From positions 6,549-70,548 of the forward strand of contig CAZEPL010000003.1 in assembly GCA_964514135.1 (NCBI GenBank): a DNA stretch of 64,000 nt, given 5' to 3'. Below, one piece after another: positions 23,026 through 31,106 of the stretch. The notes under the pieces are model-generated. The model did not search any database and was not told the origin of the DNA. It worked only from the letters and a program-made list of their open reading frames with translations. The DNA comes from an uncultured Spirochaetaceae bacterium. GTDB taxonomy: Bacteria; Spirochaetota; Spirochaetia; SZUA-6; RPPD01. The stretch's first letter is position 1, and every line of letters begins with the position of its first letter. Both the position numbers and the translations under genes were made by a program.

Positions 23026-23607
23026 ATGAAACTCAAGCCTATCGCATATATAGGTATAGTTTTTTTACTGCTTGCTTTACCGTTATCTGCCCAGCGCGCA
23101 CCGGATATAGATTCCTTTAAAGAGGGATTTGCCCGCTATACCGTAAACGGGAAATACGGCTTCATCGACAAAACCGGAAAGCTAGCCATAGCTGCTGTGT
23201 ACGAGAACGCCATTTACTTTAAAAACGGAGTTGCCGCCGTAAAGAAAAACAGGAAGTGGGGTTATATTAACGCCGATGGGGTATTAATAATTCAGCCGCA
23301 ATTTGAAGATGCTGACAGTTTCAGCGAGGGTTATGCCTGTGTCCGAAAAAACGGTAACTACGGCTTTATTAATAAAAGCGGGACATTTGTCATTCAGCCC
23401 CAGTTTGATTATGCATTTTCATTTACGGAGGGTTTGGCAGCGGTTAAAAAAGATAAAAAATGGGGATTCATAACCCCGACCGGTTCATATGCCATACTCT
23501 TGCAGTTTGAAAGCGTGATGTCATTTAGTGAAGGACTTGCTGTAATCCGGATAAATGAAAAGCATGGATATATCGATAAAACAGGGGAGATTAAAATCGC
23601 AGCTTAA
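23026..23607 (+). CDS. WG-repeat (WG_beta_rep) lipoprotein, N-terminal part ending at an in-frame TAA
   Basis: It has a signal peptide and repeated KWGYI(N/D)..G motifs. Confidence 0.6.
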   Translation: MKLKPIAYIGIVFLLLALPLSAQRAPDIDSFKEGFARYTVNGKYGFIDKTGKLAIAAVYENAIYFKNGVAAVKKNRKWGYINADGVLIIQPQFEDADSFSEGYACVRKNGNYGFINKSGTFVIQPQFDYAFSFTEGLAAVKKDKKWGFITPTGSYAILLQFESVMSFSEGLAVIRINEKHGYIDKTGEIKIAA

Positions 23608-23646
23608 TATAAGGATGCAACTAGTTTTAAAAACGGGCGCGCGTCC

Positions 23647-23937
23647 GTGGAGGATGAACAGGGTCTTGCCATTATCGATAAAACCGGCACGATTATTTTT
23701 CGAGTAGATTACGACACCTACTTTAATTACTTCTTCGACGGACTGCTCCTCTCTAATAAACAGGGTAAATACGGTTATATCAATAAAAAAGGTGAAGTGG
23801 TCATATCACCTCAATTCGAAGATGCCTGCAGTTTTTCGGACGGAGCCGCCGCAGTACTTAAAGACGGTAAATGGGGCTATATTGATACCAGCGGAAATTT
23901 TATAATCCCTCCCCGGTTCGATCCCATTCATTGGTAG
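23647..23937 (+). CDS. WG-repeat protein, continuation in the same frame after the TAA at 23605-23607
   Basis: It is in the same frame as 23026..23607. The repeat register continues uninterrupted across the stop. Confidence 0.55.
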   Translation: MEDEQGLAIIDKTGTIIFRVDYDTYFNYFFDGLLLSNKQGKYGYINKKGEVVISPQFEDACSFSDGAAAVLKDGKWGYIDTSGNFIIPPRFDPIHW

Positions 23938-24308: not shown

Positions 24309-26612
24309 TTACTTTATGACTTTACTCACTAAGAGTATCTCGCCCTGGTCAGTCGCCAGAATGAGCTGTTTATCTCCGACAAGCGGGCGGCAGCCGATCC
24401 GGGCATCGATTTTAATCAATCTCTGCACATTGCCTGTCATAGCGTCTGCAATGACCAAGGTTCCGTCATTCCTGCTGTAGTATAGTCTTCCGTTCAGATA
24501 AAGCGGAGGAGCCGTTACATGAGGAAGCGGTCTAAATAATGCCCTGCCGTTTGCAGCAGAGAATGCGTAAATCTTATCGGCAGCATATATGTATACTGCT
24601 TTTTCAAGCGCAATTATTTCTTGATGCGGGTAGATATTTGAATTAGGATCAAGTTTTTTCTGCCAGACTATGCTTTTGCTATTCAGATCAACACATACCA
24701 GCATACCTTTTCTTCCACAGAAATAAGCCCTGCCCTGGGAAACACTGATTGGAATAGCTATCGGACCGAAAGCTTGGGTTTTCAGCGGCTGAGGATCAGG
24801 CGCTCCGCTCTGTACGTCCATACTAACAAGCTCTCCCGTTAGGTTAACTATATATATTTTACCTTTATACACCACTGGTGTCATTAGTGAACCGCCGGGT
24901 ATCTGATACTCTTTTTGGGTGGTGCCATTCTGTAAATCGATAATTTGGATAGCGGAATCAGTAGCAAAAAGCCCGTTATTGCCTAATACCACTATACGCC
25001 TTCCGAACATTTGATTTTCCACGGTAGTCAATGCTCTGCGCTTAAGCACCTTACCCGAAGCGACCTGTATGATAACCAGCTCTCTGGAACCCGCGAAGTA
25101 GAGATTACTGCCGATAACTTTAGGCCAGGAATTATGATTGGGATTGTTCGACGTTTCTTGCGACCATACAATACTGCCATTGCTGTCAAAGGCATAAACT
25201 TTTCCCTGGTTACTGGCTGCTACGATCAGCTCACCTGCCGGCAGCATTTCTCCCACAAAACGAGCGTCAGCCAGCTTAACTTTCTTAATCGGAACTACTT
25301 CTCTTGTTATCCCGGCCGGTTTCTTCTCTTTGCCTGTATCTATTAATCCCACTGCCTTATTCAGCTCATCCTTTGCTTTGACTTCGCTTTTAGGCTCCTT
25401 TTCTTCCTGCTCCTTTTCCGCCTTTGAAAGCTCCTGTAATACAATAGTGTAGTCCTTTTGGGTTGCTATATTGGTTTCTACTGTTACACTTTGCTTATTA
25501 AATCCGGATTTCTTTACCGTAAATTCAAGCGTTTTACCTTCTTCATATAGTTTTTGAAATCTTCCTTTGCCAACAGATACACCGTCAAGATATATATCCG
25601 CATCTTTTGGTTCGGTTGCGATTTTAATCTTAATTAATACGGGGACCGTTTTTGTTAATTGAATTTTATCTTTATCTTCGGAAGACTTTTCCGCTGCCAT
25701 ACTGACTTCTTTAATCTCTACCTGATCCAGCTTTTTAAGTTCATCCTCTTTTTCAGCTGAGATCTCTTGCGGCGGTTTAATTACCTTATTAATCTTATCA
25801 TTCGTTTCTGTAACCAGAGCAGAAACTGTTTCCAACTCCGCTTCTGTGAGCTCTTCAGCCTGATCGGCCTTTTTTACTTCATCTACCATAACCTTGACTA
25901 TCTGCTCGGTTTCTTTCGCGGCTTCTTCATCTATGGTCACTTCCTGACGCGCTGTAACAACCAACGCCATACCCTCCATTTTTTTAACCAACGCTTTAAG
26001 CTTGGTATTGTCAAGTTGAGTCTGCTCCTGTATCTTATCCGATTCCGCGCTCTCAGGGACTATTGTTACCGCTCCCTCTTTTACAGCTAATACGGTTTCT
26101 TTAGACTCCGTTACCCGTACTGAAAATTCAGTTCCGCGGATACCGCATACTGCCGTGCGAGTACGGACTTTAAAAGACTCTTTACCGGATAATTTGGAAA
26201 CTTTGCACAGAACCGATCCCACAGCCAGATCAATGTCTACTGCTGTCTGTTCCGGTTCCAACCAAAATTCCTTTAGGGAAATTTCCGTATTCTCCTGAAC
26301 TCTTACCACAGATTTCTGTCCAAACTGCAGCTCGCAAAGTGAATCAGCTCCGACCTTCACAACTTCATCGGGATGCACGATATTGCCAATTTCTAAATAC
26401 TCCCATTCAGCTGTCCCTTTAACATACACCTCGCCGGATACGAAGATTACCAAAGCCTCTTCATAGGTCAAAGTTGCTTTTCCCGATTCAAGGTCTTGAT
26501 CCGATAAAGATTCAGTTCGAGTAACCATCTGTGCAGGCTGGGGACATGAATAGAAAAAAGCACATACTCCTATCATGAAAATTATGAGGATTAACTTTGT
26601 CGGTTTAAGCAT
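24309..26612 (-). CDS. Exported multi-domain protein: FecR-like + coiled-coil + PEGA + PQQ-like beta-propeller repeats
   Basis: After the signal peptide, the FecR-like region is VVRVQENTEISL...GIRGTEFSV. The PEGA domain is IATEPKDADIYLDGVSVGKG. Propeller repeats near the C-terminus include GKVYAFDSNGSIVWSQ. Confidence 0.55.
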   Translation of the reverse strand: MLKPTKLILIIFMIGVCAFFYSCPQPAQMVTRTESLSDQDLESGKATLTYEEALVIFVSGEVYVKGTAEWEYLEIGNIVHPDEVVKVGADSLCELQFGQKSVVRVQENTEISLKEFWLEPEQTAVDIDLAVGSVLCKVSKLSGKESFKVRTRTAVCGIRGTEFSVRVTESKETVLAVKEGAVTIVPESAESDKIQEQTQLDNTKLKALVKKMEGMALVVTARQEVTIDEEAAKETEQIVKVMVDEVKKADQAEELTEAELETVSALVTETNDKINKVIKPPQEISAEKEDELKKLDQVEIKEVSMAAEKSSEDKDKIQLTKTVPVLIKIKIATEPKDADIYLDGVSVGKGRFQKLYEEGKTLEFTVKKSGFNKQSVTVETNIATQKDYTIVLQELSKAEKEQEEKEPKSEVKAKDELNKAVGLIDTGKEKKPAGITREVVPIKKVKLADARFVGEMLPAGELIVAASNQGKVYAFDSNGSIVWSQETSNNPNHNSWPKVIGSNLYFAGSRELVIIQVASGKVLKRRALTTVENQMFGRRIVVLGNNGLFATDSAIQIIDLQNGTTQKEYQIPGGSLMTPVVYKGKIYIVNLTGELVSMDVQSGAPDPQPLKTQAFGPIAIPISVSQGRAYFCGRKGMLVCVDLNSKSIVWQKKLDPNSNIYPHQEIIALEKAVYIYAADKIYAFSAANGRALFRPLPHVTAPPLYLNGRLYYSRNDGTLVIADAMTGNVQRLIKIDARIGCRPLVGDKQLILATDQGEILLVSKVIK

Positions 26613-26808
26613 TCTACCCCCCCCCTCTAGTCATTATTTCTGTAACTTTCTACCATATGCTTTCTTAGATCGAAGTAAAAAACAGAAAAAATTGATTCCA
26701 TTTCAAATTTTACACCTTATCTCAGGCATTTTCAATTATTATGGAAAAAAACTACGTTATGTAAAAAAGTGATCGTCGAATCCGGTGTTTTCTAACCCGA
26801 TAAAAGCG

Positions 26809-27921
26809 CTAAAAACGATAAGCCGCACCCAAAGATATGAACTGTATCTGTACTGCAGAACCCTGACCTTCATAAGGAAGCTCAAGGCCGGCAATCAGTC
26901 CGAATAAAATATGCGGATTGAACACAAATGAAAAATTTGTTTGTACTGCTATATTCGGACTTATATTATAGATAAAGCTGATGCGTAAGGGTATTTGAGC
27001 AAAAAAGAGCCAGGCTGATTCTCCTGCCGCGAGAGAGAGCTGCTCCGGATTTTTATTGTCTAAATCCTGCTTGGCGGTTACCTGCACCGCTCCCGCGAGT
27101 AATGAAATGGAATAGCTGGAGGAAAACACACCGAGTGTGCGAAACACATAACCGGCACCTGCTAAAAATATCAGATTATCGGAAGCAGCCGGCAAGTCAT
27201 CCGGACTGACCGCATCGAATCCGAAGAACATATAATCGTTATAATCAAAATATACTGAAATCAGCAGACCCTGCTGCCGTTCAAAATACCAGACAAAATC
27301 CAATTCCAAAGGAAAGGGAAATTGAATTCTTGGCCTGAGCGTGAATTTGGCCTCGTCAATATCCGAAGTATTGGCTTTTAAAATCGATCCCACCCATATG
27401 CTGAGTTCAAACGGTCTGGCCATAGCCTCTGCAAACTGAACGGCCTGTATAGTGTCTTTTGTCTCAACATCTTTGATAAGGGAAGTTATCTTTACTTCAG
27501 GCTCTACTTCTCCCAGATGAGAGCTGAACTTGCGGGCCGTGGTTTCGATAAAGCCCTTAAAAGCAGCGTAATTAAGCTTATCGGCAGGGTAGCTAAACTC
27601 AGCGCTGGTAATATTCTCTTTACCCCGTTTAAGTTCAACCAGAACCGTAATCTGATTTGATCCGCCTTTTGTCACAGTAGTTGTGACAACCGATTTGGCC
27701 GCTTCCTTATATTCGGTATTAATTATAGGCTGGATAACCGTAATTAGCGAAGAGAGCATATCAGGTATTGTGGATAACAGCTCTTTGTCCGACTGTGTTT
27801 TATGATTTACCGGTTCAAAATACACACGGTGCAGTACCAATTCCTTATCCTGGGCGCAGAGTGAAAATAAAAGACAAAGCATCAGAAAAAAACTGCACAG
27901 CACTTGTTTCATAAATGCCAC
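26809..27921 (-). CDS. Hypothetical outer-membrane beta-barrel-like protein
   Basis: It has a signal peptide, C-terminal alternating hydrophobic strands and a terminal Phe (LGAAYRF). Confidence 0.4.
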   Translation of the reverse strand: MAFMKQVLCSFFLMLCLLFSLCAQDKELVLHRVYFEPVNHKTQSDKELLSTIPDMLSSLITVIQPIINTEYKEAAKSVVTTTVTKGGSNQITVLVELKRGKENITSAEFSYPADKLNYAAFKGFIETTARKFSSHLGEVEPEVKITSLIKDVETKDTIQAVQFAEAMARPFELSIWVGSILKANTSDIDEAKFTLRPRIQFPFPLELDFVWYFERQQGLLISVYFDYNDYMFFGFDAVSPDDLPAASDNLIFLAGAGYVFRTLGVFSSSYSISLLAGAVQVTAKQDLDNKNPEQLSLAAGESAWLFFAQIPLRISFIYNISPNIAVQTNFSFVFNPHILFGLIAGLELPYEGQGSAVQIQFISLGAAYRF

Positions 27922-29750
27922 CCCAGTCCTACATAGAGCATCATATGCAGAGGCACATAAGAAATACCATCGGGTTCGTCTAAACGCAAGGTTACGGCGT
28001 CAAAGAGAATACCGGTATCAAGATAAAAAGGCATATCACTCATACGGTTGGTAAAATAAAATTTCATACCCGCATTAATCATGGCCCCAAAATAGAGATA
28101 AGGTCCGAAATTATAATCAACACCCATATCAGTTATGGTTATTGCAGGGGTGTACGATGCCGAAACCAGGAGACCGACATAGATATCGCTTTTACTGGAA
28201 CGGAAATAAAATTTTGGTCCCAGAGAAGCATGAAAGTCTATGGCCATCACATCTTCGTCACCCAAAGAGCACGCACCTGCATGTGCACCCACGGCAGCCG
28301 AAAGCGAAATAATAGGATCAAAGATATATTCATATTCGATTCTTAAGGCATTTAAGGGAGTTCGCGGTGTGTTTCTCAACTCCTGCTCCGTAGAACTCGG
28401 TGAGAGGACCTGGTCGCCCAGCATCTGAAGACCCCCCAGCACTGTGAGCACATGCGGCCAGGAACACCTCTTGGCTATAATCCGGTTTTTATAGACCTGC
28501 TTTTCATACGCTGCCAGCTCGGCGGAAACATCACCCTCCTGCTCAAAAATCGGATTACCCGGTTTGGGCAGTACGCGTGAGACCGCTTTACTAAAATTGA
28601 GTGATATATCATCGATGGAATCAAATACGGAAAACCCCGCTTCGCTTATATAGAGTACAGCGTATTTTACGCGCTCTGACTGCACGTCGTACAGGAGCGC
28701 ATGTACAAAAAGTTTTCCCTGGTTTTCCTGATATCTGCCGGCCACAACCAGCTCGGCACCGTTTTTCGCAGCCAGACCGAGATCCGGATAATCGCTTCGA
28801 CCGGGATTGCTGTTCTGTCCGGCGATCCGGATAACCTTTAAATCCTTATCTTTAATGAAGTTAACGTTAAAGGTACTTAAAAATATATTTCCGTAGGGAT
28901 TGTAGTTCTCATCCTGAATATTTAAAAAGGGAAATACCATAATGCTGAAGGTATCTTTTTTAGGTACTGTCGTGTCTTTACCCAGAGCTTCAAGCGTATA
29001 GTACTCCTCCTTATTTATTTCAACGGAAATGATTCTCTTAAGTGGTTTATAACCTTCTTTTTCCAAACGCAGCAGATATTTACCCGTCGAAAGCTCTACT
29101 GCTTTGGGTGTGGTACCCCATTCGATATTATCTATAAAGACACGCGCCCCCGCGGGATTACTATTGATGGTAATGCTCCGGCTGCTTTGGGAAAGATACA
29201 TTTTGGGACGGGCTTTGCCGAAGCCAATATAACCGCTGCCTACCCACGGTTCAAAATCTATATAACCTAAAAGCAACTGAACCGCCTTCTGCTGTTCATC
29301 GGGAGTCACCGGAAGATAAGAAAGCTTTCCGTTTTCCGCTATGTCAAAAGAGTAGGGGAACAGAATAACGGCCTGCGGCTTAATCTCATATTGTTTAATA
29401 AGGGGAGCCCCGTTATTCCCTGCCAAACGTACCTGGTAAGATCCTGCCGTAAGCTTTACAGTCTTTATTCCCCATTCACTACATTGCAGCTCTACCGCAG
29501 CAGTCGTGGGACCGCTGAACTCGAGACTTCCGGCATTATCGATTTGTTTTCCTCTTGAATTCTGCACAGATTTTTGGCAAATGATCACAACAAGGGACTC
29601 GTTTGAATTTGAGGGAGCAGGAAATGTACTACAATTACTGAGAATTAAAAGAATAGCAGTTACTACAAATCCTAATTCTTTTTTCATTATATTAAAAATC
29701 AGATGTTTGTCTATAATTATGACATAGTGTGGGTAAATTGTCAAACACAT
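27909..29750 (-). CDS. Exported PEGA-domain protein
   Basis: The PEGA-like segment is ITINSNPAGARVFIDNIEWGTTPKAVELSTGKYLLRLEKEGYKP. The 3' end overlaps the next gene by 13 nt. Confidence 0.45.
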   Translation of the reverse strand: MCLTIYPHYVIIIDKHLIFNIMKKELGFVVTAILLILSNCSTFPAPSNSNESLVVIICQKSVQNSRGKQIDNAGSLEFSGPTTAAVELQCSEWGIKTVKLTAGSYQVRLAGNNGAPLIKQYEIKPQAVILFPYSFDIAENGKLSYLPVTPDEQQKAVQLLLGYIDFEPWVGSGYIGFGKARPKMYLSQSSRSITINSNPAGARVFIDNIEWGTTPKAVELSTGKYLLRLEKEGYKPLKRIISVEINKEEYYTLEALGKDTTVPKKDTFSIMVFPFLNIQDENYNPYGNIFLSTFNVNFIKDKDLKVIRIAGQNSNPGRSDYPDLGLAAKNGAELVVAGRYQENQGKLFVHALLYDVQSERVKYAVLYISEAGFSVFDSIDDISLNFSKAVSRVLPKPGNPIFEQEGDVSAELAAYEKQVYKNRIIAKRCSWPHVLTVLGGLQMLGDQVLSPSSTEQELRNTPRTPLNALRIEYEYIFDPIISLSAAVGAHAGACSLGDEDVMAIDFHASLGPKFYFRSSKSDIYVGLLVSASYTPAITITDMGVDYNFGPYLYFGAMINAGMKFYFTNRMSDMPFYLDTGILFDAVTLRLDEPDGISYVPLHMMLYVGLGWHL

Positions 29751-29906: not shown

Positions 29907-31106
29907 ATGAATAAAGAAAAAGCACAGATTCCGGAATGTACAACCGGTACGCACAAGCTGCTGCCCTGGCTGCAGACAGGATCGCTCTACCTTGTTTACC
30001 TGCTTTTAGGAATGAATTTGGTTTCCGTTGGTCCGTGTATCAACGATCTTTCCGCCCAGAACGGTGTTGATGTGGAACAGTTCAGTCTTATTTTTATTAT
30101 CCGCACCATAGGAGCACTGGTGGGTTCTTTGTTTGGGGTCAGGCTCTATGACCGCCTTTCAGCAAAAACAATTCTGCTTTTTATCCTTGTTTCCTCGGGA
30201 GTTTTTTTTGCGGGCATTCCTCTATTCACGACCTTTTTTGTTACAGCTTCATTGTTCTTTTTAATAGGAATTTCCTACAGTCTGTGCACCGCAGGCGGCA
30301 ATATAATAATCACTCGGCTTCACGGTAAGCGCTCCGCGTCTTTCCTTAGCGGTCTGCACTTTTCTTTTGGAATCGGCGCTTTTTTAATTCCGCTGGTCAT
30401 CTCTCAAATTCGTCTGCACACAGGTACAGCAGTCTATACCTACTGGTTTATTGCAGCATCTGCTTTACTTGTTGCTCTCATTGTCGCCGTGCTTCCCCCT
30501 CTTCCGGCCGGTAAAAAGCCGGCCGCACACATTAATCAAGACATTAAGCAGGCATTTATTATATTTTCCGTAGTTTTCTTTTTCTTCTTTGTGGGCGTTG
30601 AGCTTGCTTTCGGAGTGTGGATCTATAACTATTCACTTGTAAGGGAAGTCGCCGATGATCAATCCGCCGCCTACCTTACCTCTCTTTTTTACGGGGTGTA
30701 TACGGCAACCCGCTTTGTGATCATTCCGTTTGCAGCACGGTTCGATAATAGAAAAATCTTTATTCTCTTTCTTACGGGAGGACTGGCAAGCTTTATCGTG
30801 ATGTTAGTGTCTCCGGCTGTTCCGTGGCTTATTTTTGCTATTACAGCAGTTATTGGTTTTTTCCTGGCGCCGATCGTTCCCCTTACTATTTCGCTGATAG
30901 AAAAGAAGTCGGGTTTAACAGGCAGAATTGCAGGATTACTGCAGGTGGGAATGGTAACAGGAGGGATGGTCTTCCCCTGGATAATCGGACAGCTGCTTAA
31001 ACCGGCAGGTCATTTTTTCTTACCCCTGATTCTGAGCTTGAGCATGGCCATGGCATTGGGTTTGGGAATCGTACTTGTATCCATAAAGACCGATAAAAAT
31101 AAATGA
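29907..31106 (+). CDS. MFS transporter
   Basis: About 12 TM helices are present, with an RLYDRLSAK-type loop. Confidence 0.7.
   Translation: MNKEKAQIPECTTGTHKLLPWLQTGSLYLVYLLLGMNLVSVGPCINDLSAQNGVDVEQFSLIFIIRTIGALVGSLFGVRLYDRLSAKTILLFILVSSGVFFAGIPLFTTFFVTASLFFLIGISYSLCTAGGNIIITRLHGKRSASFLSGLHFSFGIGAFLIPLVISQIRLHTGTAVYTYWFIAASALLVALIVAVLPPLPAGKKPAAHINQDIKQAFIIFSVVFFFFFVGVELAFGVWIYNYSLVREVADDQSAAYLTSLFYGVYTATRFVIIPFAARFDNRKIFILFLTGGLASFIVMLVSPAVPWLIFAITAVIGFFLAPIVPLTISLIEKKSGLTGRIAGLLQVGMVTGGMVFPWIIGQLLKPAGHFFLPLILSLSMAMALGLGIVLVSIKTDKNK

Follow-up and report, generated by a model that had tools for sequence, protein, structure and literature searches.

A conserved pair of predicted outer membrane barrel proteins in Spirochaetaceae, frequently linked to a FecR–PEGA–propeller lipoprotein

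In FecR-type regulators, the FecR domain binds the periplasmic signalling domain of an outer membrane transducer. PEGA domains, which belong to the same fold class as the carboxypeptidase-regulatory-like domain (CRD), came to attention first in S-layer proteins, and many lipoproteins of spirochaetes are surface-exposed. Here we describe three adjacent minus-strand genes, named A, B and C, in a 64,000-nucleotide stretch of DNA from an uncultured Spirochaetaceae bacterium (contig CAZEPL010000003.1; this whole stretch is called the window and its positions are used throughout). Every domain type encoded by these genes is already known, namely small outer membrane barrels, PEGA, a TolB_N-like domain, FecR and a propeller of the PQQ/BamB type; the libraries and papers searched did not contain the combination. 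Among described proteins, PorE, a type IX secretion system (T9SS) protein, is a periplasmic, outer membrane-associated lipoprotein with a WD40 propeller and a CRD, and is part of an outer membrane complex (PMC7192894, PMC12773672). In spirochaetes, BamB candidates are divergent, and accessory proteins of the β-barrel assembly machinery (BAM) as well as outer membrane tethers are divergent or unidentified (PMC11358297).

Related loci (L001 and so on) were gathered for comparison through exact look-up and through scanning genomes and metagenomes for patterns based on the A-family alignment, and their six-frame open reading frames (ORFs) were scored with profiles of A, B and C. A and B were adjacent in all 17 distinct loci, which all belong to Spirochaetaceae (Marispirochaeta and unnamed metagenome-assembled genomes, MAGs) and in which the identity of A drops to 25–27%. 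Because the A–B pair recurs in 17 distinct related loci, its linkage is not due to chance. A C-type gene was linked in 12 of the 17 loci and occurred in three arrangements: A-B-C in six (the window, L001, L003, L010/L025, L027 and L028), C-A-B with overlapping stops and starts in five (L009, L017, L018, L029 and L030), and A-B with a convergent C in one (L008). The remaining five carry A-B with no C-type gene in their flanks (L007, L013 and L014–L016, the latter from Marispirochaeta including Ca. M. associata JC231). The core unit is thus A-B; C accompanies it frequently and has stayed close by, although the order of the genes was reshuffled. Co-occurrence of the trio in other genomes, on which the initial annotation of this locus had made its proposal depend, was therefore found. 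All-against-all clustering of the neighbouring ORFs revealed no gene besides A, B and C that was common to more than three loci.

A word-indexed search of 5.8 billion sequences returned 8–21 relatives per protein, and the named relatives with at least 57% identity to the query all came from Spirochaetales MAGs. By exhaustive profile search the B family comprised 85 clusters at 50% identity, nearly all of them full length. The named homologues are all termed "hypothetical", and named sources of B include Salinispira pacifica and Spirochaetaceae MAGs. The HMM libraries searched (Pfam and NCBIfam) assigned neither the A–B pair nor the trio to a characterised complex, and literature searches on PEGA/FecR/spirochaete, BamB/FecR/Treponema, the structure of LipL45, and PEGA with outer membrane barrel and lipoprotein did not retrieve the combination, in line with the initial annotation, which had recognised no described system. 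Annotation-level mentions were limited to Treponema pallidum TP0923 (PEGA, predicted outer membrane protein), TP0484 (FecR) and TP0487 (PQQ-like). A and B thus represent two unannotated outer membrane protein families, and the trio is lineage-restricted to Spirochaetaceae.

Gene B (26809–27912) encodes a 367-amino-acid (aa) outer membrane protein with a cleavable signal peptide ending in AQ; a nearby Cys is not conserved. Searches of Pfam, NCBIfam and the PDB with close and wide alignments gave no match to B, and Pfam assigned no family to 50 members of the B family, one of which hit DUF3996 at E 0.0018. The AlphaFold2 (AF2) model shows an eight-stranded β-barrel at aa 168–367 (26812–27411; predicted local distance difference test, pLDDT, approximately 70), with long external loops and short periplasmic turns as in barrels of the OmpA/OmpX type. 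Its best structural matches in Foldseek were Ail, OmpA, NspA and OmpX (E 1e-6 to 1e-4). The outer membrane protein-type end AAYRF, pointed out in the initial annotation, withstood comparison with 50 relatives: YRF is the family consensus, which gives B a C-terminal aromatic β-signal, and conservation is 90% or more at G362 and R366. The barrel is preceded by a soluble domain (aa 22–135; 27508–27849), modelled with low confidence as β-strands followed by a helix, whose motifs RRVYF, QPI and F..TA..FAP.LG.V.P are kept across 50 members.

Gene A (27909–29687) encodes a 592-aa protein that also ends in a predicted barrel. Its homologues align end to end down to 26–34% identity. The signal peptide (29631–29687) carries the lipobox LILSNC, whose Cys19 is invariant in all eight aligned family members, two distant ones included, so that A is probably lipid-anchored at its N-terminus as well. 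An N-terminal β-sandwich (aa 30–126; 29310–29600), all-beta in the AF2 model with a pLDDT of about 75–80, had neither a Pfam nor a PDB sequence match. It is followed by a PEGA domain (aa 171–231; 28995–29177) found in eight of eight members (PF08308, E 2.6e-16, approximately 59.7 bits versus a cutoff of 20.8) and by an alpha/beta domain resembling TolB_N (aa ~245–378; 28554–28955), which was matched by PF04052 in six of eight members (best E 1.2e-4) and gave a weak TolB match in a PDB profile search. In the window copy this match is sub-threshold (14 bits versus a gathering threshold of 22.4), and the region is poorly modelled by AF2. A conserved helix (aa 387–407) leads into the C-terminal barrel (aa 412–592; 27912–28454; pLDDT 65–85), which has 8–10 strands, the exact count being uncertain. 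The top Foldseek matches in the PDB were OmpA, Ail, NspA, the N-terminal domain of OprF, and OmpW (E 1e-6 to 1e-4, target-normalised template modelling (TM) score up to 0.71). A ends in GWHL and lacks the C-terminal aromatic residue of a β-signal.

PDB sequence searches with close and wide A alignments returned nothing significant, and NCBIfam gave no meaningful matches for A and B; among barrel families, weak, sub-threshold matches were confined to DUF2715 and DUF3996 of spirochaetes. Two further ideas were discarded. A and B are not detectably paralogues, since their profile–profile comparison was negative (probability 0.8%), and A does not fit an autotransporter-like design of helix plus barrel, since its barrel of approximately 180 aa is best fitted by eight-stranded barrels and matches of the EspP type had low TM scores. 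Structure prediction, which had been recommended as a check, thus provided barrels in both A and B; the barrel and the TolB_N-like domain of A and the N-terminal soluble domain of B had been overlooked in the initial annotation.

In the AF2 model of B, long connections of 18–25 aa alternate with four-residue turns. Among 50 homologues the strands and the short turns are kept, turn T2 (RTLG) having a mean top-residue frequency of 0.70, whereas variation peaks in the four alternate long loops, which also hold the indels. This pattern, which is read from the alignment and is independent of the AF2 model, fits the topology of OmpA and OmpX, so that both termini of B, and hence its N-terminal domain, would be periplasmic. 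With the barrels of A and B in the outer membrane, the β-sandwich, PEGA domain, TolB_N-like domain and pre-barrel helix of A would likewise lie in the periplasm. Within A, the lowest column entropy falls on PEGA, the TolB_N-like domain and the helix before the barrel, and the barrel itself is less conserved than these; within C, conservation peaks in FecR. Selective constraint therefore appears to be concentrated on parts predicted to face the periplasm, which argues against a surface adhesin or an S-layer.

Gene C (24309–26612) encodes a 767-aa lipoprotein, the lipobox of which (FYSC) contains a Cys23 that is invariant in the family; together with the lipobox of A and the signal peptide of B, this bears out the export signals initially proposed for all three proteins. 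Full-length homologues share 57–79% identity. Behind the lipoprotein signal directly follows a FecR domain (aa 84–182; 26067–26363; PF04773, E 5e-14, 52.9 bits versus a cutoff of 24). Residues 49–315 resemble the Leptospira lipoproteins LipL45, Lsa33 and Lsa19 and align to positions 36–309 of the 391 in the LipL45 model (NF033165, E 4e-19); at 68.9 bits versus a curated cutoff of 350, C contains a related module and is not a member of that family. A charged stalk (aa 186–322; 25647–26057) with 40% charged residues, 3% Pro/Gly and no aromatics is putatively helical or coiled-coil, judged from composition. It is followed by a PEGA domain (aa 328–389; 25446–25631; PF08308, E 2e-4), marginal at 21.7 bits versus a cutoff of 20.8, and by a β-propeller of the PQQ_2/BamB type (aa 446–767; 24312–25277; PF13360, E 1e-18). 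The initial annotation had described this architecture correctly with respect to FecR, PEGA and PQQ propeller, and had rightly counted two PEGA proteins, A with the strong match and C with the marginal one; for its "coiled-coil", composition is the argument.

The PEGA profile segment occurs one to five times in related C-type proteins, and the length of the stalk in C looks evolvable. Distant C-type proteins in L004 (10001–13066), L005 (10001–12661) and L006 (9484–12102) have 870–1020 aa, 30–38% identity and two to five tandem PEGA-like repeats. Their genes stand alone: htpG lies upstream of those in L004 and L006, and downstream of those in L004 and L005 are the gene of elongation factor G (EF-G) and a hypothetical gene of 234–237 aa. 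We also observed, in L020 (5115–9770; GCA_016930675.1) and L021 (5188–7119; GCA_964638895.1), that the FecR and charged-stalk module of C (50–69% identity across the N-terminal half) recurs in the same genomes, joined to different C-terminal heads. One paralogue bears a C-type lectin head, and its neighbours are a DUF4384 protein and a protein combining caspase (Peptidase_C14) and lectin; a literature search on DUF4384 and caspase returned noise. A second bears a ConA-like head of the DUF1349/GH43_C2 type. Neither has A- or B-type genes adjacent to it.

The ORFs as first called on the minus strand extended from 29750 to 27909 (613 aa), from 27921 to 26809 (370 aa) and from 26612 to 24309 (767 aa). 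All three were confirmed, with corrected starts for A and B. Every A homologue begins with MKK or MRN...LSNC, matching the ATG at 29687. In addition, a promoter-like element at 29716–29744 on the minus strand (TTGACA, a 17-nt spacer and the extended −10 sequence TGtCATAAT; 11/12 plus TG in a consensus scan) falls inside the supposed 5′ extension to 29750, and A was therefore assigned the ATG at 29687. The core of this element is invariant in the window, L001, L010 and L003 (60–100% protein identity). For B, homologues of 366–367 aa beginning with MK point to the ATG at 27912. The 13-nt overlap between A and B given in the initial annotation goes back to an upstream GTG start; most likely the stop of A and the start of B overlap by 4 nt (ATGA), as they do in L001, L003, L007 and L009. 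Owing to the ATGA overlap and the promoter-like element before A, A and B are predicted to be translationally coupled and to be made together from this one element.

The situation is different at the B–C junction, where a gap of 196 nt contains a second, sigma-70-like element at 26707–26735 on the minus strand (TTGAAA-17-TAAAAT; 10/12 in the consensus scan) that is kept in the window, L001 and L003. C thus probably has its own promoter, with read-through from B being possible. No convincing intrinsic terminator was found on the minus strand after B or C. A hairpin-capable stretch is present just 3′ of the B stop (26766–26800, minus strand); its form in L001 is GGCG-TGAAAA-CGCC, it is weaker in the window, it has no T-run and it was not found in L003, and is thus not convincing as a terminator. 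An Rfam scan of the whole window gave zero matches, and hence no known RNA element in the B–C spacer. The genes had been called tightly linked and a three-gene operon. For C both descriptions are too strong, as it has a promoter-like element of its own, lies upstream or in convergent orientation elsewhere and is missing near five of the 17 A–B pairs.

We propose that A, B and C build a periplasm-facing scaffold at the outer membrane that serves tethering or envelope biogenesis, as opposed to an adhesin on the cell surface, an S-layer or an iron-signalling device; tentatively, we put the probability of this reading at roughly 0.45. In such an assembly A and B, each ending in a predicted small barrel of the OmpA/Ail type, would sit in the outer membrane with their soluble domains in the periplasm, and C would dock on the periplasmic faces of A and/or B. 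Candidates for the contact are the FecR domain, by analogy with FecR-type regulators, and a PEGA–PEGA interaction, as A and C both carry PEGA domains. Docking might keep the propeller of C at a set distance under the outer membrane, and the assembly as a whole could then act as a periplasm-facing scaffold. Among the three suggestions of the initial annotation, its outer membrane scaffold fits best, while the S-layer and the adhesion complex sit poorly with conserved parts that are predicted to face the periplasm and with surface loops of B that are its most variable segments. A bolder version, which we regard as rather improbable, sees in A-B-C an undescribed periplasm-spanning or outer membrane-tethering machine of free-living Spirochaetaceae: a ring or array of A, doubly anchored by lipid and barrel, would together with B recruit the stalked BamB-like propeller lipoprotein and either set the spacing between outer membrane and cell wall around the periplasmic flagella or form a lineage-specific device for outer membrane biogenesis.

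Several points weigh against the scaffold. It is from gene linkage that we infer an A–B–C complex, and the role in tethering or biogenesis is likewise conjectural. In the five loci with A-B and no C-type gene within the flanks, three Marispirochaeta genomes among them, the pair has no linked partner, and the solitary C-type genes in housekeeping neighbourhoods suggest that C-type proteins may act independently of A-B, perhaps in a general role, and that the tie of C to the pair is perhaps loose. C could also lie outside the cell, since surface exposure is frequent among spirochaete lipoproteins. Finally, the AF2 models of A and B, built from alignments of eight sequences, have a mean pLDDT of approximately 51, and modelling was poor for the N-terminal domain of B and, in A, for the PEGA and TolB_N regions.

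Some of the evidence can be read in other ways. If C were BamB, A and B could be its partners or dedicated client barrels in a module for outer membrane protein insertion. BamB chains led the PDB search with the C-family profile (8orr, E 8e-19, residues 38–361, the whole propeller aligned), both proteins are lipoproteins whose PQQ-type propellers are homologous from end to end, solitary C-type genes beside the EF-G and HtpG genes are what a core function would predict, and the divergence of known spirochaete BamB candidates (PMC11358297) counts in the same direction. Yet C reaches 54.1 bits versus the cutoff of 285.2 for the BamB equivalog TIGR03300 and 53.9 versus 423 for NF008351, and PQQ_2 propellers are widespread outside BAM while the PDB is enriched for BamB. 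The loops of BamB that touch POTRA3 of BamA in Escherichia coli, LSLR and DVD, are not conserved; their counterparts in C are PGGS(L/r)M and residues that are not acidic, in a part of the alignment that is weak. Moreover, C has a FecR/stalk/PEGA extension of approximately 440 aa with no counterpart in BamB, and neither bamA nor any other BAM gene was present in any fetched neighbourhood. We consider this identity of C unlikely. A split tether resembling Tol-Pal draws on the propeller from a different angle: the TolB_N-like domain of A and the propeller of C, both anchored at the outer membrane and facing the periplasm, would share the job of TolB and connect the outer membrane to the wall or the inner membrane. 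The TolB_N match in six of eight A-family members speaks for this idea, but in the window copy it stays below threshold, the propeller of C is of the PQQ/BamB and not of the TolB type, and there was no Pal/OmpA_C peptidoglycan-binding domain and no tolQRA gene nearby in the window, L001 and L003, which makes a split tether very unlikely.

Surface exposure would be the hallmark of an adhesion or S-layer-like complex in which A and B serve as anchors at the surface and C as an adhesin of the LipL45/Lsa type. The N-terminal half of C is like LipL45, Lsa33 and Lsa19, the latter two being annotated as adhesins; S-layer proteins are where PEGA was first noticed, and many spirochaete lipoproteins are surface-exposed; and FecR-stalk paralogues bear lectin-type heads (Lectin_C and the ConA-like DUF1349). 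This complex is unlikely all the same. With a barrel of the OmpA type, A and B have their N-terminal domains in the periplasm, the predicted surface loops of B are short (18–25 aa) and least conserved while the conserved surfaces are periplasmic turns and domains, the NCBIfam scores lie far under the family cutoffs (68.9 versus 350 and 55.2 versus 420), and the carriers are free-living marine or hypersaline-sediment spirochaetes, not host-associated ones. As for FecR-type trans-envelope signalling, in which C would, as in ferric-citrate regulation, sense a signal at an outer membrane barrel and pass it on to a sigma factor, C does have a true FecR domain as its most conserved part, and genes for outer membrane barrels adjoin. 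However, C is a lipoprotein without a cytoplasmic anti-sigma domain or a transmembrane helix, it scores 20.8 bits versus the cutoff of 385 for the FecR equivalog NF007296, and A and B are small barrels and not 22-stranded transducers. Neither an extracytoplasmic function (ECF) sigma factor nor a TonB-dependent transducer was adjacent in the window, L001 and L003 or recurred across the loci, and signalling of this kind is extremely improbable.

The neighbours of the module comprise a major facilitator superfamily (MFS) transporter, a response regulator, a histidine kinase, a WG-repeat protein and a glutaredoxin. The MFS transporter gene lies divergently upstream of A (29907–31106, plus strand) and is kept only in the three closest lineages (the window, L001 and L010), which is probably simple synteny and not a functional link. 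Genes for a glutaredoxin and a protein resembling ferredoxin-thioredoxin reductase B or rubredoxin are located 3′ of C in L001 (12327–13110) and L003 (6725–7532); in the window, where the neighbourhood is rearranged, this pair is not downstream of C. A WG-repeat gene (PF14903) at 23026–23937 on the plus strand of the window is split mid-repeat by an in-frame TAA at 23605–23607 (...IKIAA*YKDATSFKNG...) into ORFs of 193 and 96 aa in the same frame, and could be a nonsense pseudogene or reflect a sequencing error. In L001, a 337-aa gene without Pfam annotation adjoins the equivalent response regulator.

Spirochaete envelope architecture is poorly understood beyond a few pathogens. The locus offers the large LipL45-type family of FecR lipoproteins a linked pair of barrels as candidate partners, and related genes occur in named genera (B in Salinispira pacifica, A and B in Marispirochaeta), which opens a route to the organisation of the spirochaete outer membrane if the strains are tractable. 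The scope is limited to a narrow clade with a function that is deduced and building blocks of known types.

Compared with known systems, the trio shares features with several. With TolB it has in common a putative TolB_N-like domain in A and a propeller in the linked C; here, however, the two are on separate proteins, the propeller is of another type and a Pal/TolQRA context is missing. Anti-sigma regulators of the FecR/PupR type have the periplasmic FecR domain PF04773 that is also present in C, but differ from C, which has neither an anti-sigma domain nor a membrane helix and lies next to no sigma factor or TonB-dependent transducer. In their C-terminal halves, A and B are both predicted to share the fold of the N-terminal domain of OmpA and of OmpX/Ail, NspA and OmpW (Foldseek E ~1e-6). 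B also has the long variable loops, short conserved turns and terminal aromatic residue of such small barrels, although neither A nor B has sequence similarity to them. In OmpA the soluble domain follows the barrel, whereas in A and B it precedes it, and both lack the peptidoglycan-binding OmpA_C domain; A further differs from small outer membrane barrels by combining a lipobox with a barrel and by ending without an aromatic residue.

BamB resembles C as an outer membrane lipoprotein with a PQQ-type propeller and is the best match of the C family among solved structures, but C fails the equivalog cutoff, has not conserved the BamA-contact motifs, carries the 440-aa N-terminal extension and is not encoded near BAM genes. 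LipL45, Lsa33 and Lsa19 (NF033165, NF047849 and NF047876) are, like C, spirochaete lipoproteins in which a lipobox and a FecR domain are followed by a helical region. C scores far below the cutoffs of these families and has in addition PEGA and a propeller of 320 aa, and barrel partners are not described for LipL45, whose own function is obscure. PorE differs from C by its tetratricopeptide repeat (TPR) and OmpA_C domains, by having no FecR domain and by belonging to another phylum, and T9SS genes are not present at this locus. As an analogy only, this periplasmic propeller lipoprotein of an outer membrane complex is nevertheless the closest citable architectural counterpart of C.

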